Positions 1 to 25,743 of a stretch of 37,601 nt of DNA are shown here, one piece after another. Position numbers and translations under genes: made by a program. How positions within the stretch are numbered: position 1 is the first letter of the stretch; every line of letters starts with the position of its first letter. Under the pieces are notes generated by a model. That model made no database searches. It saw nothing but the letters and a program-made list of their open reading frames with translations, and was not told the origin of the DNA. The stretch is from an uncultured Holophagales bacterium. Its GTDB lineage: Bacteria > Acidobacteriota > Thermoanaerobaculia > UBA5066. The stretch lies in the NCBI GenBank assembly GCA_964575465.1, contig CAZNSS010000001.1, positions 1 to 37,601 of the forward strand. The letters run 5' to 3'.

Positions 1-3000
1 GAGGGCCCGGGGGCCCGCGAGTCGCGAGGCGCGCGCCGTGAGGCGCGCGAAGGCCCCTCGGCCGTCGGGGGCCGAGGGGACGAGCTGTGCGAGGAGAAGG
101 CGCGACTCGGCGGCCGGGGCGTCGGGGGCGTCGGACGGAAGAGGGACGGAGAGCGTCGCGGCACGCGCGAGGGCCCTGCCGGAGAAGGAGACACGGACCG
201 CCGCGACGAGGCGGTAGCCCGCGACCGGGGTGAGGCCCGAAAGCTCCGCCGGGGTGAGGAGCTTCGCCTCGACGGCGACGCTCTCGGCGAGCGCCCCTTC
301 GGGAAGCGTCAGTTCGACTCCGTCGGGGGAGGTAACGGTTCCTCCGAGCCCCCCGAGGACCGAGCCGCGCTCGAGCGACTCGGGGAACGGGTAGAGGCGG
401 ACGTTCTCCCAGCCCGACTCGAGGACGACTTCCGAGGCCTTCGGGCTCGGCGAGACGGAGAACGAGAGGGCTCCGACCGTCGCCCGCGAAGCGGCTCCGA
501 CTTCCGTGGGCGAGATAGGTTCGTGCGCGAGGACGAGATCGACGGCGAAGGGAGCCTCGTAGAGCTCGCCTCCGCTCGAAAGAACGAGCTTCTCGTCGAG
601 GTAGGCCTGGACGGCGAGGCCCGAAGGCCATTTCGCCGCGCCATCGGCAGAGCGCGCGACGACGCGGGCCGTCGTGCGCCCCGCGGGCGAGACGACGGGC
701 GGGTCGAGTGCGAGCGTCGCACCGAGGGGCGGGACGGGAGACGGGAGGTTCGAGGCGGTGAGCGGCTGACCTTCGCCCGGGGCGAGCGACGGGGGCGCGA
801 TGGCGGTGTCGACGTCGGCGAGGACGATCGCGACGGCGCCCGGTGACGCAAGGGCGATTCGCGCGACGTCGGCATCGCCGCTTCCCGCCCGGCGCTCGAC
901 CGGCCCGAGCGTCAGCCAGCGCCCCGAGGCGAAGTCGTGGCGGACGGCGACGAGAGGGACCGCTCCGGGCGTCCTCGCAGGAATCGGGAGCGTGAGGTGG
1001 ACCGCCGCGGGGGCGAAGAGGGCCGACTGCGGAAGCGGCGCAGGGTTTGCGCCATCGGACTCCAGCCTCACGTCGGCCGCCGCGAGCGCCGACCAGCCGA
1101 GCGGGAGGAGCTCGGGGAGGGCCTGGGCCGAGACGGGAGTGAGTCGCACGGCGAGGCTGCCGGACGGAGGAACGACGAAGGCGTTCGGGGCGGCCTCGAG
1201 GAGAAGACCGGACGTGGCGGGACCGCCGAAGGTCCCGCCGGTCGTCGGGTCGAGCCGCGAGGATGCCGCTGTGGCGAGCGGAGTGAGACGGACGTCGAAC
1301 GGAACGGCGCCGCTGCCGGGGGCGAGCGGGAGGCGGCGAACGGCCTGGGTGTATCCATCCCTGGCGAGGTGCAGGGCGTACCGCCCCGCGACGACGTCGC
1401 CGAAGAAGCCGTAGCGCCCCCGGACGTCGGTCGTCGAGACGGCTCCGGGGACGTCGGGCGAGCCGACCGCGCCCGGGAGTACGGCCGAAGAGAGATAGAG
1501 CCGCGTCTCGACCCCGTCGAGCGGGCGGCCGGTCGCGTCGTCGTACGCCTCGCCCGAGAGGAACCCGCCGGAAAGGTCACCCGGACCGGCACCCGGGAAG
1601 AACGTGGTGACGAACGGAGCCGCGACGACGTTGCCGCGCTCGTCCGCGGCCGGAGCGCGGAGCGTGAGGCGGACGGCCTCGTCGCGCCACCAGGCGTCCG
1701 TCGCCGTCGGGAGGTCGACCCGAAGGGCCTTCCCGTCCGCCTCGAGCGAGACGGCCCCCGGGCGCGGGGCGGCGGTCGGATCGCTTTCGAGCGAGAGGAG
1801 GAGGCTCGCGCCGTCGCCCGCCGCGGCCGAAAGTGAGAGGGTCGAGGAGCTCATCGGCTCGGAGAAGAGGACCGTCAGGCGGCCCGACGTGCGGTCGAGC
1901 TCGGCCCGTTCCACGAACGGCGCGGAGCAGTCCTTCCGGACGAGGGCGTGGACCCCCGGACTCGACGTCCCGTCGCGGCCGAGGACGCGGATCGAGACGT
2001 CGTGGTAGCCGTTGCCGACGAGCGGGAGCGAGAGGAGGAAGCGGCCGCTCGCGTCGGCGGTCGCGCCGACGCTCACCGCGCCGTCGGTCGCGCGCAGCGT
2101 AGCGCCTGCCGGGGCAGTGCCACGAAGCTCGAGCCCGGAGGCGCAGACGACGGCGGGCGGCGGCGGCTCGAGAACGGGCGAGACGCCCGTCACGGCCGGA
2201 GCCACCGTGAAAGACGACTCGAACGGGGTCGCGAGGGCGTTCCCGGCGACGTCGGTGAGACCCGTGCCGAGAGAGACGCGGTACGACGCGCCCGGCGTCA
2301 GTCCGGCACCAGGAACGAAGGCCACGGCGCTCCCCGCGATCGAGAAGGTGCCGACGATCGGCTCACCCAGGCCGTCGCGGGTCACGACGAAGCCGCCTGG
2401 CGCGACGAGCGAGGGCTTCGAAAGCTCCTCGGAGAAGAGGACGAGGAGGATCCCGTTCGGGTCGGTCCCTGTCGATCCCGACACCGGGACGACCTCGACG
2501 ACCTCTGGCGCCGTCGTGTCGCGAACGACGAGGCGCCTTACCGAGGCCGCGCGGCCGGAGAGGTCCTCCACGCGGACGATCAGTCCAACGGTGCCGTCCT
2601 GAGTCGGCGCGGCGGCCGACGTCGAGAAGGAGACGTGGCGCCGGCCGTCGGAAGCAGGCGCGTCCCACGTGAGAGTCGCCGGATCGAGCGAGATGCCGTT
2701 CACGGAGACTGCGGCACCCTCCGTCGCCCAGGTCTCTCCGGCGATCGGGATCGAAGGCGCGGAGGAGTTCGTGAGGCGGACCAGGTCCGACGGCGCGTCG
2801 AGACGCAGCGCCGGCCCTCCGGCGTCGACGACGACCTCGGATTCGACCGTCGTCGAGAGGCCCGCCGCGTCGGTGGCGGTGACGCGAATGCGGAGGGTGC
2901 CCGACGCGGCGCCCAGCGGAAGACCTTCGGCGCGGAACGCTCCGGTCGGGTCGACGATCGCCGGCGAGGAGCCGACCGTGCTTCCACTTCCTGCGATGCT

Positions 3001-6000
3001 CGACGCCACGACCGACTGGAGGTGCGCTTCGGAGCCGATGTCGACGAAGCCCGTCACGTCCGCCACGGGAGGAGAGTCGCCGCGCCGCCCGAAGCGGGCG
3101 CCCGAGGTCGGCCACGTCAGGGTCACGCGAGGGGCCTGGCTGTCGCGCGCGACCACGACGCGAGACTCGCCCGCTCGTCCAGCCCGGTCGACGCCCCTCG
3201 CGACGAGGACGTTCGGCCCCTCGGTGAGAGCGACGCCGGGAACCGTGAACGCCGTCCCGGCGCGCGCCGCGGCGTCGACCTTCACTCCGTTGAAGTAGAG
3301 ATCGGCCGCGACGTCGGAGAGGGTTCCGGACGCGGGGGTCCGAGCCGTCGCGACGAGGGCGCCCGCAACCGGGGAGGAGATCGAGATCTGAGGCCCCTCG
3401 TCCGAGAGACGCGTGATGCGAACCCAGGTCGCCGCCGGAGACCCCGCGGCAGCCTCGCACGCGAGCTCGAGGGCGTTCTCGCCGACGACGGGAAGGGGCA
3501 CGTCGCCCGCGGCGAAGGTGCCGTCCGCGGTGGCAGCGACGTACTCCTGCATCCCACCGCCCGCCTGCGGAACGCGGACGACGACTCGGCGCGACGTCCC
3601 GCTCTTCCCGACGATCGTGACCTTCCCGTCGGGAGTCGTCGAGCCGTCCGCCGGGCGGATGTCCACGAGGGAGCACCCTCCACCACCGACGACGAAGCTG
3701 CGGCTCGCGCGCGTCTCGTTCCCTGCCGTGTCGACCGCCACGACGGAGAGGACCCAGCCGCCTGCCTCCGGAATCGAGACCTCCGTCGACGGCGACGACG
3801 CCGATACCGAGGCCCCGTTCAGGAGGATCCGCGGAGCAGGAGCCGCGCCTCCGGCATCCGACACGGCGACCGTGACGGTGACGGGCCCCGGGAATGACGC
3901 GCCGTCGGCGAGAGGATGCCCCGCGGCGGAGAAGGAGACGGACGGGGCCGTCGAGTCGGCGACGACGGAGACACTCGCGGAGCCGGTGCGTCCGTGAGCG
4001 TCGTTCGCGGTGACGGTGAGGGCATTCGGACCGTCGTCGAGCGGAACGTCGAGAACTCGGAACGCACCCGTCGCGTCGATCGCCGCGCTGAGCGCGCCTG
4101 CGCGGACGAGGCCGTCGACCGTCGCGTCCGCTCCGCCGACGACCGCGCCCACGAGGTCGATCTTCCTCCGGTTCGTCCGCGCCCCCTCGGCCGGCGAGAT
4201 GAGGACGACCTTCGGTCCCCCCGACCGGACGACGACCTGGACGGCGGCCGACGCGGTGCGCCCGAGCGCGTCGACGGCGACGGCGACGAGCTCGTTCGGA
4301 CCGTCGGGCTCGAGTGGGAGGCCGGGGAGGCTCCAGGTCGCCCCCGAGACGACCGCCGCGCGGCCGTTGACCTTCACCGCGGTCGCGCCCGAGGCGCGGG
4401 CGATCGAGACCGCTCCCGCGACGTCGGCCGTCGGCCCCGGCAGGGTTGCTCCGTCGGGAGGGGAGGTGATCGAGACGCTCGGCCCCGAAGCCGTATCGAT
4501 CGAGAACGACGCGTGCGCCCTGGCTTCGCGCCCCGCCACGTCGAGAACCCTCGCCTCCACGGCGTGTGCACCGGCCCCGGAGATGGGTGTACCGAGGACG
4601 TACGCTGCGCCGTCGACCGTTACTGTCAGGGTTGCCGCACCCGTTCCCGTAAGGGGCTCGCTCGTTCGGATCTCCGGCGTAACGGCCGAGAAGAAGGTCC
4701 TGCCAGTACCGAGCGGGAGATCGCCGAGGAGGATCTCGACCACGGGCCCGGTGGTCTTCACCGTGAAGGAACGCATGACCGTCGCCCGGTTCCCGGCCCT
4801 GTCGACGAGCTCGACGGAGACGGAGTTCTCCCCTTCTTGCCACGGGAACGGCACGAACGAGAAGGAGACGGCATCGGTTCCCGGCGTGACGACGGCGTCT
4901 CGGCCTCCCACGCGAACCGCGCGGACGTCGGGAGAAGCCGTCCCTGCGAACGTCGTGACCGGGTCCTTGAGGAGCGCGCCGGCCCCGGGCGTCGTCGAGA
5001 TGAGGGTCGGAGGCGTCGTGTCGATCGCGAACGAGGCGTGGACGACCGCCTCGTGCGCCGCGCAGTCGCGGGTGCGCGCGACGAGGAGGTGCGTGCCCTC
5101 AGCGGCGATGGGCGTCGCCTCGACGTACGGGTCGCCGTCGAGGGTCAGCATGACGGGAGGCGGCGCGGCGGCCCCGTCACGGATCGACGCCCGCGCCGAG
5201 AGCGCGCGGTTCAGCAGGGCGGGGGACGAGCCCTGAGGCGGCGTCGCTCCGGCTCCCGCGCCCGGGAACGGGGCGCCGTCGAGCGTCAGCGCGAGCTCCG
5301 GGGTCGAGGCGTCGACCCGGAGGGTTGCGAGGGCGCGTGACGAGTGCCCGAGAGAGTCCATCGCCGAAACGAGGAGGGTGGCCCTCCCGTCCGCCGTCTC
5401 CGGGATCGGGAACGAAGCCGCGAAGGTTCCTGATGCGTCCACGGTGGCGGGCAGCGTCGTGGCGTTACCCGACGGGAGCGTGAGCGTGACGGACACTGCC
5501 GCCCCCTCGGGAGCGCCCGCCACTCTCGGGTGGGCGTCGGCGACACGGCCGGAGACAGTGACGGAGGTGCCCGCCGCGAGGCAGGCCCCCGAGGCCGGCG
5601 CCGTGACCGAGAGGACGGGCGGGAGCGTGTCGAGGACGACAGGATGCGTCCAGGTCGTCTCGTTCCCGGCCGTGTCTCGCGCGAGGAGCGGGAGGAGGTT
5701 CGTCCCCTCGACGAGAGGCACGGTCGCGGTGAAGGCCCCGCCCGGGCCAAGGACCACCGGGACACCGTAGAGCGTCAGCGAAATGGCGTCGCCGGCCGTT
5801 CCCGAGACGACGACGGGAGATGCCGCGACGAGGGAGCCGGCCGGCGGCGCCACGACGACGATCGCGGGACCCTGCGTGTCGAGGGTGAAACGGCGCGTCA
5901 GCGTGAGCTGCTGCGGAGGGGTGCCCGCGTCGGCCGCCACGACGGAGAGAACGTGCTCGCCATTTGCGGAGATCGACGTTCCCGAGCTCCACGCGGCGCC

Positions 6001-7014
6001 GTCGAGCGTCGCCGTGACGACGACGGGCGCACGACCGCCCGTCGTCGCGACCACGGGCGTGACGGCCCGACTGAATACGGCGCCGTCGACGAGAGGCTGG
6101 CCCGACTCCGTCACGGAGAGACCGAGGGGATCGGTTGGGTTCGTCACGACGGCGTCGCGAGTCAACCAGGCGCGCCCGTTCATCGTGAATCGCCCGCCGT
6201 AGGCACCTCCGGTGAGAACGCTTCCACCGTCGATGGTGATCGAGGCGGTGGGGCTTCCGGCGTAGACGAAGCCCTTCAGCGTCGACGAACCGTTCAGAGT
6301 CACGGCGGGACCGCTCGTGAAGAGACGCAGGAGCGCCGGGTTCCCCGCTCCGTTCAGCGAGGACGTGCCGTTGACGATGACCGTTCCGGTGGAGAGGATC
6401 CGGACTTCGCCGGTCACGCTGACCGATGAGCCGCCGTTGATCGCCACGTTCCGGAGGTAGTAGGCCCCGGCGGGCAGCGCGAGAGTCTCGTTGCCGCCGA
6501 GCGTCAGGTCGGGCGGCGAAGATCCCGAGAGAGGGTTCCGCCCCGTGCTCGTCCTCGGGATCCGCGCATTGTCGTTCGACGCCGCGAGCGTCTGGGCGAG
6601 GGGGGTGAGGTTCAGCGGTGCGCACGGCCAGGGAGAAGAGAGACTCCCCTTCGTTCCCGTGACGCGCGAGAGGCCCGTCGCCGTGACCTTCTTTCCCGGC
6701 CCAGCCGTCCCGTTGCCGCGAATCGTGCTGCTGCCGTTGAGGGTGATGGCGCCGTTCGCGACGACGTGCCCCTCGCCGCCCGTCCCCGACGAGGTCACCG
6801 TGCCGCCGCCGTTGATCGTCACGTCGTCGCACGAGAAGACGGCCTGGGTGAGGAACTCGGGCTTCAGCGCGAAGGGGTCGCTCTGGGCCGAAGCGCGAGA
6901 GGGCGCGAGAAGGAGGATCGCCGCACCGGCGAAAGCCCGGGCTGCGGTCCTCAGTCCGTCGAACGACGAAGGGCAGCTTGAGCGGCTCCGGGACGACGGG
7001 TCGGATCGCCTCAA
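1..7014 (-). CDS. Giant exported multi-domain surface protein, N-terminal 2338 codons (C-terminus lies beyond the left edge)
   Basis: Not in the ORF track because it has no stop inside the window. Manual translation of the minus frame (plus-strand triplets starting at positions = 1 mod 3) ran from 7014 to 1 without a stop. In the lines re-checked triplet by triplet there was no TTA/CTA/TCA, and the first base of those triplets (codon position 3) is almost always G/C. All listed minus ORFs in 1-7000 are in the other two frames. The product starts MRRSDPSSRSRSSCPSSFDGLRTAARAFAGAAILLLAPSRASA|QS (Sec-type signal peptide). It continues with a G/N/T-rich beta-helix-like region, 12 or more tandem Ig-like domains with D-T-x-P-P-x-[VIL] junctions, SbsA-type Ig domains and a CarboxypepD_reg-like domain. 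The start is tentative: TTG 7014-7012 has GAGG 6 nt upstream and overlaps the upstream stop as TTGA. GTG 7056 is an alternative. Confidence 0.85.
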   Translation of the reverse strand, partial: MRRSDPSSRSRSSCPSSFDGLRTAARAFAGAAILLLAPSRASAQSDPFALKPEFLTQAVFSCDDVTINGGGTVTSSGTGGEGHVVANGAITLNGSSTIRGNGTAGPGKKVTATGLSRVTGTKGSLSSPWPCAPLNLTPLAQTLAASNDNARIPRTSTGRNPLSGSSPPDLTLGGNETLALPAGAYYLRNVAINGGSSVSVTGEVRILSTGTVIVNGTSSLNGAGNPALLRLFTSGPAVTLNGSSTLKGFVYAGSPTASITIDGGSVLTGGAYGGRFTMNGRAWLTRDAVVTNPTDPLGLSVTESGQPLVDGAVFSRAVTPVVATTGGRAPVVVTATLDGAAWSSGTSISANGEHVLSVVAADAGTPPQQLTLTRRFTLDTQGPAIVVVAPPAGSLVAASPVVVSGTAGDAISLTLYGVPVVLGPGGAFTATVPLVEGTNLLPLLARDTAGNETTWTHPVVLDTLPPVLSVTAPASGACLAAGTSVTVSGRVADAHPRVAGAPEGAAVSVTLTLPSGNATTLPATVDASGTFAASFPIPETADGRATLLVSAMDSLGHSSRALATLRVDASTPELALTLDGAPFPGAGAGATPPQGSSPALLNRALSARASIRDGAAAPPPVMLTLDGDPYVEATPIAAEGTHLLVARTRDCAAHEAVVHASFAIDTTPPTLISTTPGAGALLKDPVTTFAGTASPDVRAVRVGGRDAVVTPGTDAVSFSFVPFPWQEGENSVSVELVDRAGNRATVMRSFTVKTTGPVVEILLGDLPLGTGRTFFSAVTPEIRTSEPLTGTGAATLTVTVDGAAYVLGTPISGAGAHAVEARVLDVAGREARAHASFSIDTASGPSVSITSPPDGATLPGPTADVAGAVSIARASGATAVKVNGRAAVVSGATWSLPGLPLEPDGPNELVAVAVDALGRTASAAVQVVVRSGGPKVVLISPAEGARTNRRKIDLVGAVVGGADATVDGLVRAGALSAAIDATGAFRVLDVPLDDGPNALTVTANDAHGRTGSASVSVVADSTAPSVSFSAAGHPLADGASFPGPVTVTVAVSDAGGAAPAPRILLNGASVSASSPSTEVSIPEAGGWVLSVVAVDTAGNETRASRSFVVGGGGCSLVDIRPADGSTTPDGKVTIVGKSGTSRRVVVRVPQAGGGMQEYVAATADGTFAAGDVPLPVVGENALELACEAAAGSPAATWVRITRLSDEGPQISISSPVAGALVATARTPASGTLSDVAADLYFNGVKVDAAARAGTAFTVPGVALTEGPNVLVARGVDRAGRAGESRVVVARDSQAPRVTLTWPTSGARFGRRGDSPPVADVTGFVDIGSEAHLQSVVASSIAGSGSTVGSSPAIVDPTGAFRAEGLPLGAASGTLRIRVTATDAAGLSTTVESEVVVDAGGPALRLDAPSDLVRLTNSSAPSIPIAGETWATEGAAVSVNGISLDPATLTWDAPASDGRRHVSFSTSAAAPTQDGTVGLIVRVEDLSGRAASVRRLVVRDTTAPEVVEVVPVSGSTGTDPNGILLVLFSEELSKPSLVAPGGFVVTRDGLGEPIVGTFSIAGSAVAFVPGAGLTPGASYRVSLGTGLTDVAGNALATPFESSFTVAPAVTGVSPVLEPPPPAVVCASGLELRGTAPAGATLRATDGAVSVGATADASGRFLLSLPLVGNGYHDVSIRVLGRDGTSSPGVHALVRKDCSAPFVERAELDRTSGRLTVLFSEPMSSSTLSLSAAAGDGASLLLSLESDPTAAPRPGAVSLEADGKALRVDLPTATDAWWRDEAVRLTLRAPAADERGNVVAAPFVTTFFPGAGPGDLSGGFLSGEAYDDATGRPLDGVETRLYLSSAVLPGAVGSPDVPGAVSTTDVRGRYGFFGDVVAGRYALHLARDGYTQAVRRLPLAPGSGAVPFDVRLTPLATAASSRLDPTTGGTFGGPATSGLLLEAAPNAFVVPPSGSLAVRLTPVSAQALPELLPLGWSALAAADVRLESDGANPAPLPQSALFAPAAVHLTLPIPARTPGAVPLVAVRHDFASGRWLTLGPVERRAGSGDADVARIALASPGAVAIVLADVDTAIAPPSLAPGEGQPLTASNLPSPVPPLGATLALDPPVVSPAGRTTARVVARSADGAAKWPSGLAVQAYLDEKLVLSSGGELYEAPFAVDLVLAHEPISPTEVGAASRATVGALSFSVSPSPKASEVVLESGWENVRLYPFPESLERGSVLGGLGGTVTSPDGVELTLPEGALAESVAVEAKLLTPAELSGLTPVAGYRLVAAVRVSFSGRALARAATLSVPLPSDAPDAPAAESRLLLAQLVPSAPDGRGAFARLTARASRLAGPRAL
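2205..6150 (-). repeat. Tandem array of about 12-13 Ig-like domains (last one SbsA/Big_5-like) in the left giant protein
   Basis: Recurrent domain junctions occur every 90-100 aa. Examples are DTQGPAIVVVAPPAGS, DTLPPVLSVTAPASGA, DTTPPTLISTTPGAGA, DTASGPSVSITSPPDGA, GGPKVVLISPAEGA, DSTAPSVSFSAAG, DEGPQISISSPVAGA, DSQAPRVTLTWPTSGA and DTTAPEVVEVVPVSGS. The last unit reads VVPVSGSTGTDPNGILLVLFSEELSKPSL...GLTDVAGNALATPFESSFTV, the SbsA-type Ig signature. Confidence 0.65.
6150..6880 (-). other. N-terminal G/N/T-rich beta-helix-like region of the left giant protein
   Basis: Translated segments include VTINGGGTVTSSGTGGEGHVVANGAITLNGSSTIRGNGTAGPG, RNVAINGGSSVSVTGEVRILSTGTVIVNGTSSLNGAGNP and TLNGSSTLKGFVYAGSPTASITIDGGSVLTGGAYGG. 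The periodic x-[IV]-x-G/N rungs are typical of parallel beta-helices. I cannot assign a family name. Confidence 0.45.
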
Positions 7015-7871: not shown

Positions 7872-10800
7872 GGGAGTCGAATTGCGAACGGTCGTTGAGC
7901 GGACGGAGCCGCGGGGGCGGGAGGGGTGAACACGGGATGCGTCGGCCGTACTCTGGGGCCGGTACGGGCTCCGGAGCGACCTGTGGAGACGGACGTCGGC
8001 CGAGCGACCGCAGGCGTCGTCGCGCGGAGTCCCGACGAGGACGCGACGATGAGTCGCCAGAGGGTGGACGTCCACTGACCAACGGAATCGAAGACGCCCA
8101 CGCCGAGGTAGTACTCGCCCGTCGTCGGTTCTGCCGGAACGCCGAAGGAGAGGGTCCTGTCGAAGGTCGTGGCGCCGCCCTCGACAGGGACCTCGATCCG
8201 GGTCCCGTCGATCCACTCGAGCCAGAGGACGATCCGGTCGAGACCGATGTCGTCCCGCGCCTGGACCGTCACCGGAATCGTCGCCCCCGCCGACACGTTC
8301 CGGGTCGGAATGGAGGCCGACACGGTCGGGGCCGCGTCGGTCGGCGGAACGCTCGCGTTCGGAGCGGCGATCGCAGCAGAGGATCCGACGTCGAGCCTCC
8401 CCTCGAGCAGGTCGGTCGTCGCGAGCCGGGACCGCCCGCCGACGGTGACCGAGTCGAACGACTCGACCCCGACGTAGGTGTCGCCCGGGAGGAGCTGACC
8501 GTCGGCATCCGCGTCGAGCGTGAGGATCCGCGCCGCCACCTCGACGGCGTCGACGAGGAACCGCCCGACGAGCTCCCCGCCGCGACGGACCTCGACGGGT
8601 CGCCCTTCGACACCCGGCCGCCATTGCGACCCTGCCGCCTGAATGCTCCTGCCGGCCACGCTCGAGACGACACCCGAGCCGATCGCCACCAGCTCGGTCG
8701 GGCTCGGCTGCTCGCACCAGCCGCTGTCGAGGATCAGGTGGCCGTCACGATCATCGGGCGATGACACGAAGATCGTCCCGGCGGCCCCGGACGAGTACCA
8801 CTGCGGGCCGCTGGCCGCGGCCAGACCAGGGACGCGGTCCTGAAGCGGGCCTCGGAACGCGATTCGGCCGCCACCGGCCGAGCCTCCCTGTCCGGCCCGG
8901 ATCCAGGGGGTGCCGCCGTGCGCGAAGACGATTCCGGTGCCTCCGATCGATCCCGCCTCGACCGAGACGCTGCCTCCCGCACCGACTCCCCCGCCCTCGC
9001 CGCTCCCGCCCTCGACGTCGATCTCGCCGTCGAGAACGAACTGCCCGCCGACGCGGAGCTGAACAACGCCGCCGCCGGACCCACCGGGCCTGTCGGCGCC
9101 GTCGGCGCCGCCGCCGGCGCCGGGAAGGGAGGGCCTGCGGAGGTTCCCGTAGGGCGGCCCCGGTACGGCCCCCGATCCTGCTTCTCCGCGACCGCCGTAG
9201 CTCCCGCCGGCGCCGGCCTCGGATCCGGGAAGGCCCGGCAGAGTCCGGCCGACCGGCGTGATGTTCGGTCCCTGATAGCCACCGAGGTAGCCACCCCCGC
9301 TCGCGCCCACGCTGCCTCGGAACGCGATGTAGGCGTCTCCCGAGACCTCCAGATCGATCTCGCACGGTTCGTCCAGACCGGGATCGCAGTGGACGAAGGA
9401 GTTCGTGAGGACGACGAGACTCGCGAAACGGTGATGACCGCGGATGACCACCTCGCCGCCGCCGACGACGACGTTCCGGTCGTCGTGGGATACGTCGGTC
9501 GCATCGACGACCGCCCCGGCCTCGAGGAGATCGCCCGTGACGATCCGGACGCTCGACGATGCCGATCCGACGCGGCCGAGGTCGTCCGTCGCTTCGACGC
9601 GGAAACCGACGGCGCTCCCTGCCGTCGCGTCCGTCGGGATCGTGTACTCCGCGTACCGCTCCCCGCCGGGCAGGGTCGCGAACGGCGTCGCTTCGCCCTC
9701 GCGGAAGAAGCGGAGCTGGGAGATCTCGCGCGTGTGCTCCACCTCCGCGGCGAGCGCGACTGTGCCCCCGGCAATCGCCAGCGCGCCGGCGGAGGGCGAC
9801 GCGAGCCGGACGCCCGGCGTCCCGGCCGGAAGGAGCGTGAAGGTCCGCTCAGACCACGACGAGTTCCCCGCGGCGTCGACGGCCTCGACGCGGAAGACGA
9901 GCGGCCGAGGCTCCGTCGTCGCCGGCAGGGGCTCGATTCCGGCCTCGAACGTTCCCTGCCGGGCCGGAACCGCGAGCGAGGCGAACGGGGTCCCGTCGAG
10001 AAGGAACCGCACCTCGACGATCCGGCCGGCGTCACGAACATCGGCGGCGAAGATGCCACCCCTCCCGGAGACGAGGGCCGACTGCGGCGACCTCACGCGC
10101 GAGATGGCCGGCGGCTTCCCGTCGACGACGGAGACGCTCTTCGGGCCCGCCACGGCCATCGCTCCGTTCGAGTCGTCCACTTCGACGGAGACCACGGCCC
10201 CTCCGAGCGCGTCCGGCGGGACCGGAATTCGGATCGTCCGGGTGGTATCGAGCACCTCGCTCGTGGGACTCCCGAGGGTGACGAGACGGGCGTACTCGAA
10301 GGCTCCGGTGATCGACAGCCGCGCCGATCTGAGGCCGAGGTCGTCCGATGCCGCGAGCGAGAGCTCGAGCGTCCCACCGCTCGAGGCCGTGGCCGGCGCG
10401 GAGAGGGACGCCACGGGCGCGTGGTCCACTCCGATCTGCAGGGGCAGGGTCGCGAGACCGTAGAGACCCACCTCGTCGGTGACGCGGACGACGGCCGTCG
10501 CCGCGCCGAGGGCGCCCGCGGGAATCGTGACCGGAGAGAAGGCCCCGGCGTACCGTTTCGGCGAGCCCGCGATGGCGATCGTCTCGCTGAACGTCATCGC
10601 GCCCGAGACCTCCAGCGTCGCGGTCGCCGCTCCTCGGACCGCGACGGCCTCGAGCGACACGAGGAACGACGATCCGGATTCGTATGGACCCGCCGGCTCG
10701 AGGATCAGGCCGACGCGGGGGGAGGCACTCGTCAGTACGAAGACCGGGGCCGGGTCGGCGGCCCCCTCGAGGCCCTGATCGTCTACCGCCGTCGCCGTGA

Positions 10801-22800: not shown

Positions 22801-25225
22801 GCGCGAACGCGAGCGGCCGAAAGTCGCCCGCCGCGCGCGTGACCTCCACGGCCCAAGCCTCCCCCGGCGGGACCGAGAGAGACGGAAAGTCGACGACGAC
22901 GAACCCGCTCCCCGAGGGGGCCGGAGCCACGAACGAAAGCGTGACCGGCATGGGCGTACCGGAAGCAGGACCGTGGACAACGAAAGCGTAGGCAGCCTCG
23001 GCCGAGAGGCGCCCGACGACCGCGAGGGGCGAACGGCGGCCGCCGGCGCGCTCGAAGACGTCGAACACCTCTCCGAATGGAATCGAGCGGAGCGCCCGCG
23101 CGTCGCCGGCCGGGTAGGCGAGAAACGTGACGCCTGTGGCGCCGTTGAGCTTTCGGACCTCGAGGGTCGGCGCAGTCCCCGCGCCGGAGCTCTCGAGCGT
23201 CGCTGCGATCCAGGGCCTCGCCCAGGTCATCGCCGAAGCCGTGTCGGCGAGGAGAGACCTCGCCGTGAGGCCGCGTGCCTCCTGCTCCTGGCGGAGGAGG
23301 CTCGCGAGCGCCTCGGCGGCGTCTCGGCCCTTCGTCAGGGTCCGCCGGAGGGTGTCGTACTCGGGAAGGTCGTGTCGATTCCCGAGCTGGTCGAGGAGGA
23401 GCGCCTCGAGCGACGAGAGCAGCCCGTCGCCCAGGTAGAGCCGCTGACCCGCCTCGGCGAGGTCGACGGCCCGACGCTCGACGTCGGTCGTCACGAGCCG
23501 AGGCAGCTCCGGTGGGATCGACCCTGGCGGCGCCACGGCGAGGCTCCACGCGAGACCGAGCAGCCGGATGTTCGATCGGACGAGAGCCTCGGGAAGGAGC
23601 TCCGTGAATCGCGGGAGGACGAGTGACGAAGGAGACAGAGGGATCCCGGCCTCGCCGACGCCCGTCCGCAGCCGGATGACGCCTTCTGCCGGCCCCGCCG
23701 ACTGGAAGGTCGTCGCCACGCAGCGGCCCGTGACGTCGGCCACGAGCCGGTACTCGAACGTCGCACCCTCTCCCGGGGCGAGCGAGGGAATGGTGGGCGA
23801 GAAATCGTCTCCCGCGCGCTCCTTGTGAGCGCCGGTGATTCGGCTCGAATCGAGCTCGACCGTCACCAGGTACTGCGTGGCACGCGAGAGGTTCGTGACG
23901 GTGGCGTAGAGGGTGTAGGGCTCGCCCTCGCGGACGACGTCGGGGTGGTTGAAGGAGAGGTTGAAGCGGGCGTCGACGACCTCGACGGCGGCCTTGAGCT
24001 TCCCCGCGAGCGGCAGGACGTCCCGCCCGGGCCGCTCGAGGTCCGCTTCGATCGCCAGCGTGAAGACGTGCGTGCCGGGAACGAGCCCTTCAAGCGTGAA
24101 GCTCGCCGCCCCCTGCTCGCTGGGCCCGAGGCGCGCATTTCCTGTCGCGCCGAGGACCGGCACCTTCTGGCCGGCGGAGACCGGCGGCGTCGTCTGCGCG
24201 AGGCGCAGCAGCTCCCGCGGGACGGCCGCGGGCAGGCGAATCGCGCCCGTCACGTTCGCGAGCACGGCCGCGCTCCCCGTGGGAGCGCCGTTCACGACGA
24301 GGAGACTGGCGTCGAGGAACTGGTTGAGGAACGAGACCTTTCCGGGGAGGACGATGACACCGAACAGCTTCGTCTCGGCAGGAACCTCCTCGGGTTCGTA
24401 TCCCGGAGCGAGCTGGTCGGGCGCGGCCGCTTCCAGGCGGAACGGTATGAGGCTCGGGGGCTGCCATCGCCTCAACGCGGCAGCGACGTCTCCGGGAAGG
24501 CCGTCGAGCCGGACCTGCGGCTTCTCGAGGAGCTCGACCTGTGATCCCTCCTGGAAGAGGACCGGGAGCTCGATCGTGACGGGCGTGTCCCTGAAGACGA
24601 ACCCGACGTCGAAGCTGAAGGCCTGGAAGCTCTGCTGGGTAATCTCGATTCCCCTCGCTCTCAGCTCCTCCAGCGTCAGCTGCCGGACGGTCGCCGAAGC
24701 GAGGAGGATCTGTCGCACCTCGAGGACGACGGTGGAGGGACTCGCGTTGCCGAGGACCTCCCCGCCGCCGGCCCGGGCAAGCCGGATGTTCGAGAGGAGG
24801 TAGGTCCCCTCCGACTGGAAGCCAGGCAGGAGAAACGCGCCGCCCGGAACGGTGGAGTAGGTGATCGGCTGTGGCAGCTCCGGCCCCGAGAGATCACCTT
24901 GAACGACGAGACCCGAGGCGCGCGGATCGCCCGACGCCATGGCGCCGCAGACTCCCGCGAAACAGGTGCGGACCGTCGCCCCTTCGGCGACGTTCAGCGT
25001 TTGTTCCTCGTCGCCCGGAGCGATCGAGAGACGAGTGCCCTGAATGAGGAGCTTGTCGGAGGCGAGCGGCTCGGTCGGCTGGGCTGAAGCCCCGGCCGCT
25101 GGAACGAGCGCGCCGAGGGCGAGCAGAAGGAGAAGCGCATGGACGGATGCGAGCGGGCCTCGACGCCCCCTGGAATCCGCCCGCCGGCCGGTAACGGCCA
25201 GGGTGTCCCGCACTCTCCCCCGCAC
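7868..25225 (-). CDS. Giant exported protein, 5785 aa (Ig-like, CarboxypepD_reg-like, SbsA-Ig and Gly-rich beta-helix modules)
   Basis: A 17.36-kb uninterrupted ORF in the track. The N-terminus is ...RGRRGPLASVHALLLLLALGALVPAAGASA|QPTEP (signal peptide). It carries about 12 CarboxypepD_reg-like repeats and two SbsA-type Ig domains. It also has many Ig-like domains with the A-x-D-D-x-G/V-x-x-[VIL] motif (ATDDVQVSRIRIEVGG, ASDDQGVQRVEVFRDG, SVNDDGPVSRLDVALG) and four Gly-rich beta-helix modules. The start is GTG 25225. GTG 25213, preceded by GGGGGAGA, is equally possible. There is no in-frame ATG before the signal peptide. Confidence 0.93.
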   Translation of the reverse strand: MRGRVRDTLAVTGRRADSRGRRGPLASVHALLLLLALGALVPAAGASAQPTEPLASDKLLIQGTRLSIAPGDEEQTLNVAEGATVRTCFAGVCGAMASGDPRASGLVVQGDLSGPELPQPITYSTVPGGAFLLPGFQSEGTYLLSNIRLARAGGGEVLGNASPSTVVLEVRQILLASATVRQLTLEELRARGIEITQQSFQAFSFDVGFVFRDTPVTIELPVLFQEGSQVELLEKPQVRLDGLPGDVAAALRRWQPPSLIPFRLEAAAPDQLAPGYEPEEVPAETKLFGVIVLPGKVSFLNQFLDASLLVVNGAPTGSAAVLANVTGAIRLPAAVPRELLRLAQTTPPVSAGQKVPVLGATGNARLGPSEQGAASFTLEGLVPGTHVFTLAIEADLERPGRDVLPLAGKLKAAVEVVDARFNLSFNHPDVVREGEPYTLYATVTNLSRATQYLVTVELDSSRITGAHKERAGDDFSPTIPSLAPGEGATFEYRLVADVTGRCVATTFQSAGPAEGVIRLRTGVGEAGIPLSPSSLVLPRFTELLPEALVRSNIRLLGLAWSLAVAPPGSIPPELPRLVTTDVERRAVDLAEAGQRLYLGDGLLSSLEALLLDQLGNRHDLPEYDTLRRTLTKGRDAAEALASLLRQEQEARGLTARSLLADTASAMTWARPWIAATLESSGAGTAPTLEVRKLNGATGVTFLAYPAGDARALRSIPFGEVFDVFERAGGRRSPLAVVGRLSAEAAYAFVVHGPASGTPMPVTLSFVAPAPSGSGFVVVDFPSLSVPPGEAWAVEVTRAAGDFRPLAFALVHLATGMPVSEAPAAIVRAVELPPFRLIGARQDFVLDPYGSGVWYLFNRPPAKADAEEEDRYEVETRFRGLDSTASGETLERTATFTAASALLQPSSERVLTVRFAQPVSAVIATREGQPVVTNLHRIAAGVLRDRYGNALASPVPDIRIESGHVGGLVEGKVLAGTGQAVAGATLRLVRERIVPDASGLDSRVVHDLVAERTTGADGSFFFPFVEEPVLAVPRPPEKGTVQSGFRIQAVLPPGPDPLAPLEIEEVSSIIRLQSRLARINLSFLGRGTLTGRAVYDDGGAAIGAAVTAASTLFSEVRTAKAGADGGFRVDGLPVGPITVTARDAEGRSASATVALGGPGAKVETTLRLERSRPPRIGTVSGRVLFRSETASGPQAEPVAGARVAVYSAGAPYGEAVTGTAGTFRFTGVPAGRVTLQAADFTRSRTAAIADVDLAAEGSADATLILAASSPRSVAGKVLFHDPLAQADVPASGATVFVEGPGSFAVTDAAGDYRIDGVPAQGVGEAPYRVHAIDSVRRAEGTTVVSVTDASPDPVAAATIVLDGATPGAIDGVVLDPLGRPAPGVTVTLVPIGETTTGADGTFSFEGVPARAYTVAAHVGAGLEPRAIGWIGEAGTEVLFGGHRAFVTVRLRGAGTLRVRTRTTTAGVRSPLVYRPTWFSPQELVIRQKSTGIETTTDDDGRLALVLPVGELSVTAANPFHGTASFRGAIDFAGQVKEVDLLFEGSSTVAGLVVDVDGITPVPGIDVDLEATGYIPQRQRTDELGAFRFELVPPGNVAVTASGFRGAIQRTGRTYGRITGHGQLLDLVVSLKPQGTVRGRVAEETAPGVFLPLSGAQVALQENDFPFRRFPAAPAFLTAGGDGRFEMGGVSAGRFTVVARDPGQVSRLGSRSGELKADFDVVEVGDLVLSGQVAALSVLVRDPQNGAPVPDAQVFLSNGEATVAGADGRASFQALSLGTYAAHVFHAPSGRGGRLGEIHLDHAGQDLEVVVLLDQRGRVSGVLFDDATRTVPVGGGTVRLEGTVNGRLWGAGVTALASTSREPGSSGTFAFDGLPVATYALSAGVEGSDRQAGENVVLTPTAPEAQVALVLEPIRDVWVRLFSKEQSRGLVEVDPDPVRGDGVFAISYGRHVDIYSGEPIPLTSRLAPDVPYPGHAYRFRDVLASRSFWVRALESSGEQRRAFVTSSALASGTGASADPYRITLLARGTVRVAVRDAGGVAAGGANVRVHAPNGTWEGAADAAGRAVFTAVEEGQVSVSASVPGTPLGASISRTLRWDDEVLDVTLTLSPVVSAHGTVHEAPGGDAWSGDPASLPPAGGIFVRIRPSTGDEQLLVTSGDGAFRFSGLAAGPYTLEARSLDGERVATAAGTLGSAHGTDYALPPVVLDGSRPRIVSVTPPNGQSLVSRTAPVEIVFSEPLATAVLPSGPTSSTFRLSFSSAQATGTWSSSLDGAGRQVVRFTPSPRYENSTTYMLAMVGGSGGVRDREGRSLTDSGDVGSSFTTSDTDGPRVVATVPSLARPVDPEAQVRVDFGEILALTSAQLEAAVRFEWRNGAGTWADFPVATSLTRGGYSILVAQPQGVTFTDDSLRRRLVVTGLTDVAGNPMPEWVGEYRIYDRNAPVLSIDLPPNAPTGDLVAAARYELSPSFGNLDDVTPESAFGDLDRVEFSFASAAEPTQPEPVPSAIVRVAPFRYGFVAAYTGDGVAPRPFPVWARAFDTSGNASGVARLEMRVLPNAPPTIAGVTASASGPVVGVFYAGSTVSATAAGIADADDARLTLLAELRRGGPQGTILASAPARTLERPAGGWSALAPQVLSFTVPLTEAEGSTLSVVARVTDGKGATGVREATFAVADDAGTPVLSDLVARRPDGSTATSFVIGDSFVLEVRARDAETAIRSVAIATAGGVFPAALDAVRVATTDVFRTAAVTVPGSLTVPVTIGVTATADDHGGNQATRTTTLEAAPGSDPNRPVAEWLSPFEGALWPAGYISVDAGKSGVDLLLRVRITDSDVDAGGHTIPGSYVNVRVRGPVDATGSIAADSIPAVLLSGSAGEWVYEAAWRVPNGVPAGTSLPFEVEVVDAGANRMVRTATLVAVPARHVYESATTSIDSGSDVPMPEGAEALPVFLLDGSTLSLYPPAAGGERSFEGLHLYSGGTWSAGAESTVTVRRTILTSPEVTTRGSLVPFYPLELAIGGTLAIAHGAAIDVTGHGLLGGDGSRDPVVLPGERASAPGSAGSHGGRGHPVEGDWVTLLSAPGSVYGSVREPRLPGGGAGRAGASGGGVVRIDASSAIVRLFGDLAADGGPVPGGSSVGAAGGSVRLRAGRIEGRGSVHANGSFTVYGTSRPGGGGGRVAVSWGEPQSPGISVRAEGAPSPFYRYGEPNPTPLAGAGTVFLERLGAGGVPVDRGTLRISNPASTYPPAVTPLPGLGTAIVTAIDSASRTLTVRAADAAGSIEGESVVVTTLPAGDGSTTTAVFPVATEVRVSGSVGSPDQVLVLTVDAPAGDLDATAAALAAGGAVTAKARLRFAAFEATGAVRVSSGDELEVGGILNDRAALAIAADSRVLLGELPAVDFAGTVPAPGSAVAQAGAVDVRFRITDPLGISKVEETWSVTGSKSTRTFVEPTEVTSSPVPIHLVVPANQPPGPVTYAVRTIDRAGRISERTATWNVVGDVTPPVITAVDLSPMRPGDLYVAGDVVAITARATDDVQVSRIRIEVGGRTAESETSPATLVWIAPPAATASTFTITVTAMDLAGNARTASRSISVSPRADVVPPSVSIDCPSPGALLPSGYSSFRVQAAASDDQGVQRVEVFRDGDATPTAVVEASSGSTRTFETLTPGIVLPEVAEPTPVRLRVRAWDFGGNVSADSETEVTVVPAVPVSAAGPNDWQALETRTAFLASGTLVLDEPRTFAGLLVLRGASVAHSPGGARRLTLTVTGPLFVECGGSIDVTGRGYPEGGTYPGEVAPMGGGGSHVGTGGAYGGGVRGSTFGSVKEPQEAGGGGLGANGSSSGGGVVRIQAGTLSLGGPTASILANGSVDGWQAGGGGSIWITASSIQGNGLIEASSGGTVERGGGGAVAIEYGTATGTALTRANAKGGGGGLAGDNGGAGTVLLRGPGTAYGVLRIDNGGTTGQATVLPSLGSGTAQPGSSGATLVTDRGIAIPAFFKGHEVEVTRGGILLGTWRIATISDRTVTLEPGGAGPIALQAGDLWQGAYRFDAVEVAGASRLQSLDPIRTPSLGLAGPTASGGVTESLSPLNAETVSVAGRVQVSAITATDLTVKSGATLSHPSSTAAGIRDLDLKVSGTLTIEEGGSIDVTGRGYPADAAYPGAVLPLAGGGSHLGTGGAYEWGSRGTTYGSVGSPKEAGGGGRGANGSASGGGVVRIRSGTLAFGGTTASIISNGSAYGWQAGAGGSIWITTSSITGDGLIEAGGGGPGARGGGGAVALEYAGATGTALSRMNARGGGGGGVAAENGGAGTVFEKGPGATYGTLRVNNLGTTGQATVLPSLGSGTAQVGTSGVTLVTDRGTAIPAFFVGHRVEVSRGGALLGTWRIETIAGRTVMLEPNGAETIALQAGDLWQGVYQFDSVEVAGGAMLQSADPIRDAAPRIAITSPAPGASFASGSSIAVTYGAADDHPVVRVTLRLGGSTTDIPGPTATSGVVTAPWVSSTTSLLLEATVLDSTGQSASTSIPITVLAPPPMTVSIVEPASGAVLIGGTSEPVRLQLSDSRPLRKLTLALGAATSEFTGLAGPSFSVALPVPAVSSDEAGSLLATVEDASGATVSSAPVSMTLLADSNPRVTSSVNVPSPVGAGASVVVGFTGLFRDPTNARVQLRVTGAMNWEATATGPFPSAAPTGLSALATARPFSGSFPSFVIPRGARGAMTIDVTAIDGAGRSGPAVAIVREVVAPQNGPPTVTLLDPSPSGDTIVVAGETLPASVSVNDDGPVSRLDVALGASRSSVPNPSVGVRSVSVPVPAVAEDQVLPLTATAVDDQGLEGAADPAPVFVLTSASPRVGLILEPAGPYESGSSFLVSLEAVAVRGAATATLEVSGAMTFSETIAIAGSPKRYAGAFSPVTIPAGALGAATAVVRVTDEVGLYGLATLPLQIGVDHAPVASLSAPATASSGGTLELSLAASDDLGLRSARLSITGAFEYARLVTLGSPTSEVLDTTRTIRIPVPPDALGGAVVSVEVDDSNGAMAVAGPKSVSVVDGKPPAISRVRSPQSALVSGRGGIFAADVRDAGRIVEVRFLLDGTPFASLAVPARQGTFEAGIEPLPATTEPRPLVFRVEAVDAAGNSSWSERTFTLLPAGTPGVRLASPSAGALAIAGGTVALAAEVEHTREISQLRFFREGEATPFATLPGGERYAEYTIPTDATAGSAVGFRVEATDDLGRVGSASSSVRIVTGDLLEAGAVVDATDVSHDDRNVVVGGGEVVIRGHHRFASLVVLTNSFVHCDPGLDEPCEIDLEVSGDAYIAFRGSVGASGGGYLGGYQGPNITPVGRTLPGLPGSEAGAGGSYGGRGEAGSGAVPGPPYGNLRRPSLPGAGGGADGADRPGGSGGGVVQLRVGGQFVLDGEIDVEGGSGEGGGVGAGGSVSVEAGSIGGTGIVFAHGGTPWIRAGQGGSAGGGRIAFRGPLQDRVPGLAAASGPQWYSSGAAGTIFVSSPDDRDGHLILDSGWCEQPSPTELVAIGSGVVSSVAGRSIQAAGSQWRPGVEGRPVEVRRGGELVGRFLVDAVEVAARILTLDADADGQLLPGDTYVGVESFDSVTVGGRSRLATTDLLEGRLDVGSSAAIAAPNASVPPTDAAPTVSASIPTRNVSAGATIPVTVQARDDIGLDRIVLWLEWIDGTRIEVPVEGGATTFDRTLSFGVPAEPTTGEYYLGVGVFDSVGQWTSTLWRLIVASSSGLRATTPAVARPTSVSTGRSGARTGPRVRPTHPVFTPPAPAAPSAQRPFAIRLP
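8385..9460 (-). repeat. Gly-rich beta-helix plus small beta-barrel module, copy 4 of 4
   Basis: Key segments are HHRFASLVVLTNSFVHCDP...AGGSYGGRGEAGSG...PYGNLRRPSLPGAGGGADGADRPGGSGGGVVQLRVGG...GAGGSVSVEAGSIGGTGIVFAHGG...SAGGGRIAF. The module ends with GRPVEVRRGGELVGRFLVDAVEV...LLPGDTYVGVESFDSVTVGGRSRL. This parallels GHEVEVTRGGILLGTWRI...LQAGDLWQGAYRFDAVEVAGASRL of copies 2 and 3. Confidence 0.6.
11950..14157 (-). repeat. In-frame tandem duplication, period 1104 bp (368 codons): Gly-rich beta-helix module copies 2 and 3
   Basis: The string cgtcccgtcacgtcgatcga occurs at 12804 and at 13908, an offset of 1104. A 42-nt identical run, ctgcgccgtcccgctcccgaggctcggcaggaccgtcgcctg, occurs near 12218 and near 13325. 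The two protein copies align end to end with roughly three quarters identical residues by eye. Both contain GGSIDVTGRGYP, GGGSH.GTGGAY, SGGGVVRI, GWQAG.GGSIWIT, TGQATVLPSLGSGTAQ, LLGTWRI and ALQAGDLWQG.Y.FD.VEVAG. Confidence 0.85.
15120..16265 (-). repeat. Gly-rich beta-helix plus small beta-barrel module, copy 1 of 4
   Basis: Key segments are AIDVTGHGLLGG...GSAGSHGGRG...GSVYGSVREPRLPGGGAGRAGASGGGVVRIDASS...AAGGSVRLRAGRIEGRGSVHANG...GGGGGRVAVSWG. Core motifs are shared with copies 2-4. Boundaries are approximate. Confidence 0.6.
17900..18610 (-). other. Two SbsA-type (Big_5-like) Ig domains inside the 5785-aa CDS
   Basis: The first reads RPRIVSVTPPNGQSLVSRTAPVEIVFSEPLATAVLP...VRDREGRSLT. The second reads GPRVVATVPSLARPVDPEAQVRVDFGEIL...GLTDVAGNPMPEW. 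The P-x-[VI]-x-x-x-x-P...[VI]-x-[VI]-x-F-S-E-P[LM]...D-x-A-G-N signature is characteristic. Confidence 0.6.
18690..22330 (-). repeat. Array of about 12 CarboxypepD_reg-like beta-sandwich domains inside the 5785-aa CDS
   Basis: Repeats follow the pattern G-x-[VI]-x-G-x-V...G-A-x-V...T-D-x-x-G-x-F-x-[FL]-x-G-[VL]-P-x-G-x-Y-x-[VL]. Examples are GTVSGRVLF...GARVAVYS...TGTAGTFRFTGVPAGRVTLQA, GAIDGVVLDPLGRPAPGVTVTLVPIGETTTGADGTFSFEGVPARAYTVAA and GTVRGRVAEE...GAQVALQ...GGDGRFEMGGVSAGRFTVVA. Boundaries are approximate. Confidence 0.7.
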
Positions 25226-25269
25226 AGGAGAGGCACGCTACGCGAGCGCGATCACCCGGGACAATGAAC

Positions 25270-25296
25270 AAAACGCGACACGGCGGACGCCGCGTC
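25270..25296 (-). terminator. Hairpin plus short T-tract directly after the AraC-like stop (possible partial terminator or attenuator)
   Basis: The minus strand reads GACGCGGC-GTCC-GCCGTGTC, an 8-bp stem with one G-U pair, followed by GCGTTTTGTTC. It begins 1 nt after the stop codon and lies about 45 nt before the giant gene start. The T-tract is short, so termination is probably incomplete. Confidence 0.35.
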
Positions 25297-25743
25297 TCAG
25301 TTCGCCCCGGCTCTCACGCCGGCCGCGCGCCTCCTGAGCTCGTCGCGCAGCTGCGCCGGCGTGAGGCCGAAGCAGGCGCGGACGAAGCGACCGAGCGCCT
25401 GCGGGCCGGAGAGGCCGACGGAGCGGGCGACGACCGGCTGCGGGACGCCGCTCTCGAGGAGGGTTGCGACGACGTCCGCGCGGCACTCCTGCCGCACGCG
25501 GGACATGCACCGCCCCCCCGCCTTGAACCGACGGACCAGCGTCCTCACCGAGATGTTCCGCCGCACGGCGACGGCCTTGGGTCCCTCGACGACGAAGAGG
25601 ACCTTCGTGTCGTCTCCGAAACGGGTGTCGAGACCGGCAAAGGGGTCTCCAGGAACGAGGGAGCGGATCTCGACGGCCGAGGCCCGCGGCCGGCACGCAT
25701 CGACGCCCAAAGCGGGCTTTCGCCCCCCGACCACCTTCCCCAT
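25297..25743 (-). CDS. Small AraC/XylS-family transcriptional regulator (148 aa)
   Basis: The C-terminal 100 aa fit the double-HTH AraC signature: ISVRTLVRRFKAGGRCMSRVRQECRADVVATLLESGVPQPVVARSVGLSGPQALGRFVRACFGLTPAQLRDE. The start is assigned to ATG 25743, preceded by GAGGGG, rather than the track start at 25794. The N-terminal domain is only about 50 aa. Confidence 0.8.
   Translation of the reverse strand: MGKVVGGRKPALGVDACRPRASAVEIRSLVPGDPFAGLDTRFGDDTKVLFVVEGPKAVAVRRNISVRTLVRRFKAGGRCMSRVRQECRADVVATLLESGVPQPVVARSVGLSGPQALGRFVRACFGLTPAQLRDELRRRAAGVRAGAN

Follow-up and report, generated by a model that had tools for sequence, protein, structure and literature searches.

A probable Sec-dependent Rhs/YD-shell toxin cassette of Thermoanaerobaculia-type Acidobacteriota, with a LolA-fold gene between two giant genes

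Rhs and teneurin-like toxins that carry a Sec signal as their only export signal are widespread, and WapA of Gram-positive bacteria is a studied Sec-dependent toxin of the Rhs/YD-repeat type. The defining pattern of polymorphic toxins, as given in the portions of Zhang et al. (2012; PMC3482391) cited here, is a conserved core joined to unrelated C-terminal tips. Many RHS-repeat toxin families are placed there under ‘T2SS’ export, a label read here as the Sec-dependent general secretory route. The bacterial teneurin-like proteins (TLPs) of Raoelijaona et al. (2026; PMC13018210) have Sec signals, variable N-terminal adhesion domains, polymorphic C-termini and immunity genes in the same operon. 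In the portions of that paper cited here, TLPs are defined by FN-plug, NHL and YD-shell together, occur in Acidobacteriota and have a delivery machinery stated to be unknown; no giant partner or LolA-like gene is mentioned for them. The present study concerns a related locus in a 37,601-nucleotide stretch of DNA from an uncultured Holophagales bacterium (assembly GCA_964575465.1, contig CAZNSS010000001.1, positions 1 to 37,601 of the forward strand), referred to throughout as the window.

Three consecutive genes on the minus strand of the window encode a very large protein (giant 1), a small protein of 286 amino acids (aa) and a second very large protein (giant 2). The locus is best explained, with a probability of roughly 0.65, as a Sec-dependent polymorphic toxin cassette of the Rhs/YD-shell type in Thermoanaerobaculia-type Acidobacteriota. 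Its three genes keep a fixed order with overlapping start and stop codons and are conserved as a unit, of which the small gene is the signature gene. The open reading frames (ORFs) in question, together with an AraC-like gene upstream, are:

25297 to 25743, minus strand: AraC-like gene, 148 aa
7868 to 25225, minus strand: giant 1, 5785 aa
7011 to 7871, minus strand: small gene, 286 aa
1 to 7014, minus strand: N-terminal part of giant 2, 2338 aa, frame open to the window edge

A first-pass annotation, made from the sequence alone, had proposed these four ORFs, and all were recovered at these positions. Both overlaps that it described are also seen in the sequence, an ATGA shared by the giant 1 stop and the small-gene start and a TTGA shared by the small-gene stop and the giant 2 start. 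The G+C content of the window is 72%, and the GC at the third codon position of the four frames is 0.86-0.89. This is expected for real genes of this genome and supports the frames as coding. The Sec-type leaders claimed for all three cassette products were confirmed by direct reading of the sequences, without a predictor, each having basic residues, a hydrophobic segment and a cleavage site of the A-x-A type. The same reading found no lipobox Cys after the leader of giant 1, the small protein or giant 2. The integrity of such long frames had been raised as a question, and an identical small protein with unbroken flanking frames is present on independent contigs from NCBI, Logan and JGI. One near-identical contig, compared with the window over 17,871 bases, shows 28 differences. 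An assembly artefact or chimeric ORFs are ruled out by the agreement of the independent assemblies.

The identity of the cassette follows mainly from giant 2. The full-length protein, on the near-identical NCBI contig JBQVBI010223192.1, has 6144 aa and precomputed Pfam matches to RHS_repeat and, faintly, to TEN_YD-shell; DUF6531 is absent from its precomputed list. Beyond the window edge, the window's own giant 2 is characterised by these precomputed matches only, and its C-terminal features are taken from relatives. The part inside the window comprises a DUF7305 domain and an Ig-like stalk with Pfam matches to Glucodextran_B, Big_13, Big_3_3 and Big_5, and includes the following features:

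6169 to 6447, minus strand: DUF7305 domain (Pfam)
2206 to 2520, minus strand: Big_5 domain (Pfam)
220 to 360, minus strand: ZU5-like stretch, giant 2 aa 2219-2265 (Pfam E=0.038, 14.7 bits against a cutoff of 21)

The ZU5-like stretch, which is also weakly matched in the giant 2 homologue of locus L009 (E=0.008), is a sub-threshold hint of a possible processing domain. A profile of a conserved mid-gene segment of giant 2 gave nothing relevant against the PDB.

A homologue search with the 2338-aa fragment returned proteins of up to ~4100 aa. The C-termini of relatives were reached by scanning metagenome contigs with a conserved 200-aa mid-gene segment of giant 2, which yielded 19 loci. The most similar related locus recovered, L012, has a giant 2 that is 71% identical to that of the window over the 200-aa query segment. 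This giant 2 is complete, with 5965 aa, and is preceded by a 287-aa small gene and the end of a giant 1 homologue. The order within the L012 protein is DUF7305, Ig-like stalk, ~1200 aa with no Pfam match, the Rhs plug DUF6531 (E=2e-5), RHS repeats (RHS_repeat, E=2e-21), core end and a C-terminal Endonuclea_NS_2 domain (E=1e-19), all by Pfam. The core ends in the sequence ...RPHEANDPWGLA, which includes DPWGL. The ORF that follows starts on the giant 2 stop codon and resembles SUKH immunity proteins (SUKH_6, E=1e-5). Small immunity-type genes in relatives overlap the giant 2 stop codon in this way. DUF6531 is also precomputed for the giant 2 homologues of L005, L007 and L009. The earlier statement that the locus has no catalytic motif is correct inside the window and fails for the giant 2 of relatives, given the nuclease domain at the end of the L012 homologue. 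It is limited to the window because the window edge cuts giant 2, and a giant gene cut in this way can conceal a catalytic end.

The core end motif is DPWGL in L012 and L016, DPLGL in L019 and in the short protein P0112 (described below), and a variant DPTGE in L018, L026 and the short protein P0111. In seven proteins compared, the 200 aa before DPxG[LE] align between loci (~50-200 columns, scores 123-683), whereas the 170-300 aa after it do not (scores 27-48). The tip families also differ between loci, being Endonuclea_NS_2, DUF6765, DUF4347 or none. Unrelated tips behind a core that aligns are the signature of a polymorphic toxin. RHS/YD repeats, plug, DPxG[LE], variable tip and an adjacent immunity-type gene are all found, and giant 2 is predicted to be an Rhs/YD-shell polymorphic toxin carrier, an assignment that draws on the full-length gene and its relatives, outside the window. 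The C-terminal tips of its homologues are predicted toxins, with a putative nuclease in L012.

Two giant 2 homologues appear to be frameshifted. In L015 (10832-12184) a long low-complexity segment enriched in Pro, Ser, Thr and Arg falls within the last 450 aa of the reading frame, and the Rhs-like sequence continues in a downstream ORF. A 2167-aa ORF picks the sequence up again in L017 (~6089-6200).

The cassette recurs well beyond the window. When one genome per species was scanned, 23 cassette loci emerged, all in metagenome-assembled genomes (MAGs) of Acidobacteriota labelled Thermoanaerobaculia, Holophagales or Acidobacteriota. The first-pass annotation knew of no named system with such an architecture, and the co-occurrence of the giant, small and giant genes in these 23 species-level genomes answers its question of whether they travel together. 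The gene products in order are 5720 aa, 330 aa and 6632 aa in L009 and 5425 aa, 319 aa and >3915 aa in L010. In L005 and L007 the small gene is followed by giants of 6635 and 6717 aa, respectively, with DUF7305, DUF6531 and YD-shell matches. In L001, L005, L009 and L012 the small gene likewise overlaps giant 2 by 4 nucleotides. In every context examined, giant open frames lie on both sides of the small gene, whose product diverges to ~35% identity with the order of the three genes kept. Of the 23 loci 20 were analysed, and in 16 of these the flanking plus-strand frames run without interruption as far as the end of the locus or contig. One flanking giant frame is in pieces in L046, L053, L054 and L059 (MAGs with MFD isolate names), which could reflect assembly indels or sequencing errors, or a real decay of the cassette.

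The 286-aa protein has no match in Pfam or NCBIfam, including the LolA and LolB models of these databases. A first search gave 68 homologues. A profile search through 1.84 billion representatives gave 214 clusters (50% identity), a number that marks the family as narrow, and Pfam analysis of ten weak relatives from this search gave no link to a named family. An AlphaFold2 model built with 40 homologues has a predicted local distance difference test score (pLDDT) of 83 and a predicted template modelling score (pTM) of 0.78. The top Foldseek matches of this model in the PDB are LolA, with a LolA-LolB complex, RseB and DUF1329 lower (E=1e-7 to 1e-3), and the template modelling (TM) scores are ~0.45-0.65 on the target. 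There are 41 matches at E<=1e-3, mostly LolA, with a few unrelated proteins such as PNGF-II and an ependymin-like protein. The small protein is a predicted secreted protein with a LolA-like open beta-barrel fold and no named sequence family. Its invariant residues are mostly charged (R69, D73, R76, E78, R208, R262 and E268). The first-pass annotation had imagined a dedicated periplasmic partner, which the signal peptide and LolA-like fold make plausible for the small protein. Predicted fold, signal peptide and gene overlap together suggest that it may act as a chaperone or escort.

Giant 1 is matched by Pfam to eight CarboxypepD_reg stretches, Big_5, Big_7 and DUF4625. This agrees with the domain content noted earlier for the locus (Ig-like, CarboxypepD_reg, SbsA-Ig and Gly-rich), where SbsA-Ig corresponds to Big_5 and the Gly-rich modules are seen by a glycine-density scan. 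The features that matter here are:

24614 to 25093, minus strand: N-terminal module of giant 1, aa 45-204, common to short stand-alone Rhs-type toxins
8411 to 16234, minus strand: Gly-rich module region of giant 1, four copies of ~330-420 aa (glycine-density scan and self-BLAST)

The Gly-rich copies lie at aa 2998-3363, 3730-4056, 4095-4425 and 5182-5605. The 69% identity of copies 2 and 3 points to a recent tandem duplication. The module has no Pfam match and no PDB sequence match, and PDB sequence searches with aa 51-950 and aa 3951-5785 of giant 1 gave nothing. In an AlphaFold2 model of aa 40-950 (mean pLDDT 72), consecutive beta-sandwiches and a single short helical bundle are predicted, neither an outer-membrane barrel nor a TcA-like fold is seen, and Foldseek returns generic Ig-array matches only (TM <0.2). 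The homologues at the same position have 5720 aa in L009 and 5425 aa in L010. The C-terminus of giant 1 has a Gly-rich module and an Ig-like domain, both conserved in close relatives, and a basic, Pro-rich final tail that varies between homologues. It contains neither a DPxGL motif nor a toxin. The reported lack of a sorting signal there stands, with no match to RTX, C-terminal domain (CTD) or sorting-signal hidden Markov models (HMMs) of Pfam and NCBIfam.

The N-termini of three short Rhs-type toxins match the N-terminal module of giant 1 (aa 45-204) at 55-65% identity, namely those of P0111 (1366 aa; L031, 10001-14101), P0112 (1268 aa; precomputed family PF15652) and P0113 (1074 aa; L060, 10001-13225). 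The three share the leader and the first module, and all break off from giant 1 at the same position. The depth at which they join a giant 2-type Rhs core varies, and every one of them has a tip of its own. P0113 is followed by a SUFU-like gene that overlaps it, and P0111 by insertion sequence (IS) transposases. The giant 1 module also heads these short toxins and therefore behaves as a portable unit. Portable N-terminal units of polymorphic toxins usually specify trafficking.

None of the three short toxins has a LolA-like or giant neighbour, which agrees with an alternative in which the cassette genes lie side by side but share no mechanism: giant 1 would be an ordinary adhesin, the small gene would encode a general periplasmic protein and giant 2 would be an independent Rhs toxin. 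The three proteins are tied together by gene arrangement, which is also compatible with this alternative. Against it, the order and the 4-nucleotide overlaps persist at ~35% small-protein identity across the 23 species-level genomes, the small protein always lies between the giants in the contexts examined, and its family is narrow. Mere adjacency of the three genes is distinctly unlikely.

If the locus is a Sec-dependent toxin cassette, all three proteins would be exported via Sec, and the LolA-like protein would escort or chaperone one or both giants in the periplasm. The 4-nucleotide overlap between the small gene and giant 2 suggests that their synthesis may be coupled. Anchoring, presentation or targeting of the Rhs carrier may fall to giant 1, acting as a surface fibre or adhesin. 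The Rhs autoproteolytic motif would free the toxin tip from the shell, and the freed tip would act on neighbouring cells, with the immunity protein protecting kin. A more specific proposal is that giant 1 and the LolA-like protein make up a self-contained surface presentation or delivery route for Sec-exported giant Rhs toxins in diderms. In this route the LolA-fold protein could ferry a giant segment across the periplasm, and the N-terminal module of giant 1 could provide the anchor or delivery fibre. The route as a whole is put forward tentatively and is considered unlikely.

The first-pass annotation had put forward, as a hypothesis, an extracellular fibre or sheath of two components with a dedicated periplasmic partner. 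In a purely structural version of this, the small protein would be a periplasmic assembly factor and toxin delivery would not be the purpose. About 90% of both giants consists of Ig-like, CarboxypepD_reg or Gly-rich modules, giant 1 has no toxin tip and the cassette is conserved, all of which speaks for such a structure. It does not account for giant 2, a predicted Rhs/YD-shell polymorphic toxin whose relatives end in swappable tips with immunity-type genes next to them. To our knowledge, no purely structural fibre has an Rhs shell, swappable tips and immunity genes. The structural explanation keeps a slight chance, and the claim as first made is not upheld.

A role mainly in cell-cell adhesion or kin recognition is similarly improbable. 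The giants would then be heterophilic surface receptors, with the toxin tip as a secondary policing device. Both have huge Ig-like stalks, and the portions of PMC13018210 cited here propose that YD-shell proteins whose adhesion domains vary serve social and adhesive functions. Teneurin-like membership is, however, not established for giant 2, in which Pfam finds no NHL propeller, and the tip polymorphism and immunity genes argue for antagonism.

A Tc-like ABC complex has only a very slim chance. Giant 1 would act in it as a TcA-like translocator or injector, docking the Rhs cocoon of giant 2 and delivering the toxin into the target cell by way of a channel. A large non-toxic partner is indeed encoded beside an Rhs cocoon protein, and the ~1200 aa without Pfam match before the giant 2 plug (beta-rich by impression only) could be a docking region, but VRP1, TcA_TcB_BD and neuraminidase-like matches are absent from giant 1 and SpvB and TcdB_mid matches from giant 2, no alpha-helical pore shell is seen in the modelled aa 40-950 of giant 1, and both giants have Sec leaders, unlike Tc components. 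Tc toxin identity was likewise rejected for either giant, neither of which matches VRP1, TcA_TcB_BD, SpvB or TcdB_toxin_midN/C. The sole TcdB_midN match is sub-threshold and falls on an unrelated FG-GAP lipoprotein at 33.5-35.3 kb.

Known export routes were also considered. Genes of the type I, V, VI and IX secretion systems (T1SS, T5SS, T6SS and T9SS) and usher genes are found neither in the window, nor upstream of giant 1 in other loci, nor after giant 2. This extends the earlier observation that the window has no secretion gene, with which Pfam and NCBIfam agree; the ABC-2 permease at 35357-36124 is not a T1SS component. A T6SS-delivered Rhs effector is rejected, as giant 2 and its L012 homologue have no PAAR, VgrG or DUF1795, the leader is of the Sec type and the window has no T6SS genes. 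Two-partner secretion (TPS) or contact-dependent inhibition (CDI) by T5SS is rejected, with no TpsB gene and no TPS or haemagglutination domain in the giants or their neighbours. An inverse autotransporter is rejected for giant 1, which has no IAT_beta match and no barrel in the modelled aa 40-950. Cargo of the T1SS RTX adhesin, T9SS, PEP-CTERM or LPXTG type is rejected in the absence of a C-terminal signal by HMM.

Several points weigh against the reading of the locus as a Sec-dependent toxin cassette. No outer-membrane export component was found by Pfam and NCBIfam in the window and neighbouring loci, or in the N-terminal model of giant 1. The window's own giant 2 gives only the precomputed RHS and YD-shell matches, and the toxin tip and immunity gene are inferred from relatives. 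The SUKH_6 match in L012 scores 26.5 bits against a cutoff of 27, in an ORF truncated by the locus end. The giant frames are interrupted on one side in 4 of the 20 loci analysed. Gene arrangement is also what ties giant 1 and the LolA-like protein to giant 2. Classic LolA cargo is absent, because the three cassette proteins all lack a lipobox.

The AraC-like protein has a single HTH_18 domain (Pfam, E=6e-10) and had been seen as the leader of a regulator-led operon. Three other loci, L031, L034 and L035, reach the 5′ end of giant 1 plus upstream sequence; none has an AraC-like homologue upstream of giant 1, and the neighbours there are housekeeping or unrelated genes. A tblastn search over all retrieved loci was also empty, which rules out the AraC-like gene as a conserved cassette leader. 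In the window, two hairpins flank the regulator:

25277 to 25296, minus strand: terminator-like hairpin in the 71-nucleotide gap between regulator and giant 1, 8-pair stem with 6 GC pairs and a T-rich tail, GCGTTTTGTT
25950 to 25971, minus strand: stronger terminator-like hairpin after the upstream PKD gene, 9 GC pairs followed by T6

Both hairpins are consensus matches only, from a scan that gave four terminator-like sites in 1 kb against 0.8 expected. They suggest that the regulator may be its own transcription unit. Regulator and cassette may not form one transcript. With the homologous loci lacking the gene and a terminator-like hairpin following it in the window, the regulator-led operon is not sustained, and the AraC-like gene appears to be a local, lineage-specific regulator outside the cassette.

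The remaining genes of the window are:

26026 to 31479, minus strand: 1817-aa secreted PKD protein with a long C-terminal region without Pfam match, directly upstream of the cassette
31731 to 33248, minus strand: 505-aa protein with a signal peptide and no Pfam match
33534 to 35270, minus strand: FG-GAP repeat protein with an N-terminus (...LLVASGCASSG) that resembles a lipoprotein signal
35357 to 36124, minus strand: ABC-2 type permease
36200 to 36691, plus strand: HTH_3 (XRE-type) regulator
36701 to 37600, plus strand: alpha-helical ORF, TPR-like by eye, which leaves the window

A plus-strand ORF at 25975-31473, equal in length to the PKD gene, is a shadow frame, with a reversed pattern of GC by codon position (0.94 at position 1 and 0.60 at position 3). 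BLAST found no similarity between the 505-aa protein and its 1817-aa neighbour. None of the FG-GAP, ABC-2, HTH_3 and TPR-like genes recurs beside the cassette in other loci.

The cassette supplies concrete candidate components for the open question of how Sec-only Rhs and teneurin-like toxins are displayed and delivered. If true, the proposed route through giant 1 and the LolA-like protein would be a mode of delivery distinct from T5SS, T6SS and Tc complexes and would answer how signal-peptide Rhs and teneurin-like toxins reach their targets. The portable N-terminal module common to giant 1 and the short Rhs toxins is a further testable candidate. In the literature searched, no paper was found that mentions DUF7305, links LolA-like proteins with Rhs toxins or describes a giant/small/giant cassette. 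Within that literature, the conserved giant 1 and LolA-fold partners of an Rhs toxin belong to no described system, and the toxin identity itself is ordinary.

The small protein resembles the carriers LolA, LolB and RseB in its predicted open beta-barrel with helices and its signal peptide. It differs in having no sequence-family match, an extra insert, C-terminal helices and mostly charged invariant residues, and, unlike in the LolA system, no lipoprotein cargo lies near its gene. As with T6SS Rhs effectors that have EagR (DUF1795), a small accessory gene lies immediately upstream of the Rhs gene, and by this analogy a chaperone role for the small protein is plausible. The cassette differs from that system in lacking PAAR, VgrG and DUF1795, in its secreted accessory protein with a predicted LolA fold and in the Sec leader of its Rhs protein. 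The Tc (ABC) toxins are similar in that an Rhs cocoon with a toxin is encoded beside a very large non-toxic partner. The cassette has no TcA/TcB domains and has Sec leaders, and its partner is built of beta-sandwiches and Gly-rich modules in place of an alpha-helical pore.

Among known kinds, giant 2 comes nearest to the TLPs and the Sec-dependent Rhs toxins. Like the TLPs, it is a putative surface-directed toxin with a Sec signal, plug and YD shell, candidate N-terminal adhesion domains and, in relatives, polymorphic C-termini with adjacent immunity-type genes. No NHL propeller is found in giant 2, and Pfam gives no NHL or TEN_NHL match in the L012 homologue even at E up to 10. The distant giant 2 relatives P0076 and P0078 have PF01436 (NHL) and PF25021 in their precomputed Pfam lists. 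The Sec-dependent Rhs toxins share with the cassette the signal peptide, repeat stalk, plug and YD shell, DPxG[LE] motif, locus-specific tip and an immunity gene directly downstream. The cassette is set apart from them by its ~6000-aa proteins with at least 15 Ig-like domains, its DUF7305 domain and its diderm host, and by a LolA-fold gene and a second giant (~5800 aa) that always precede the toxin gene.

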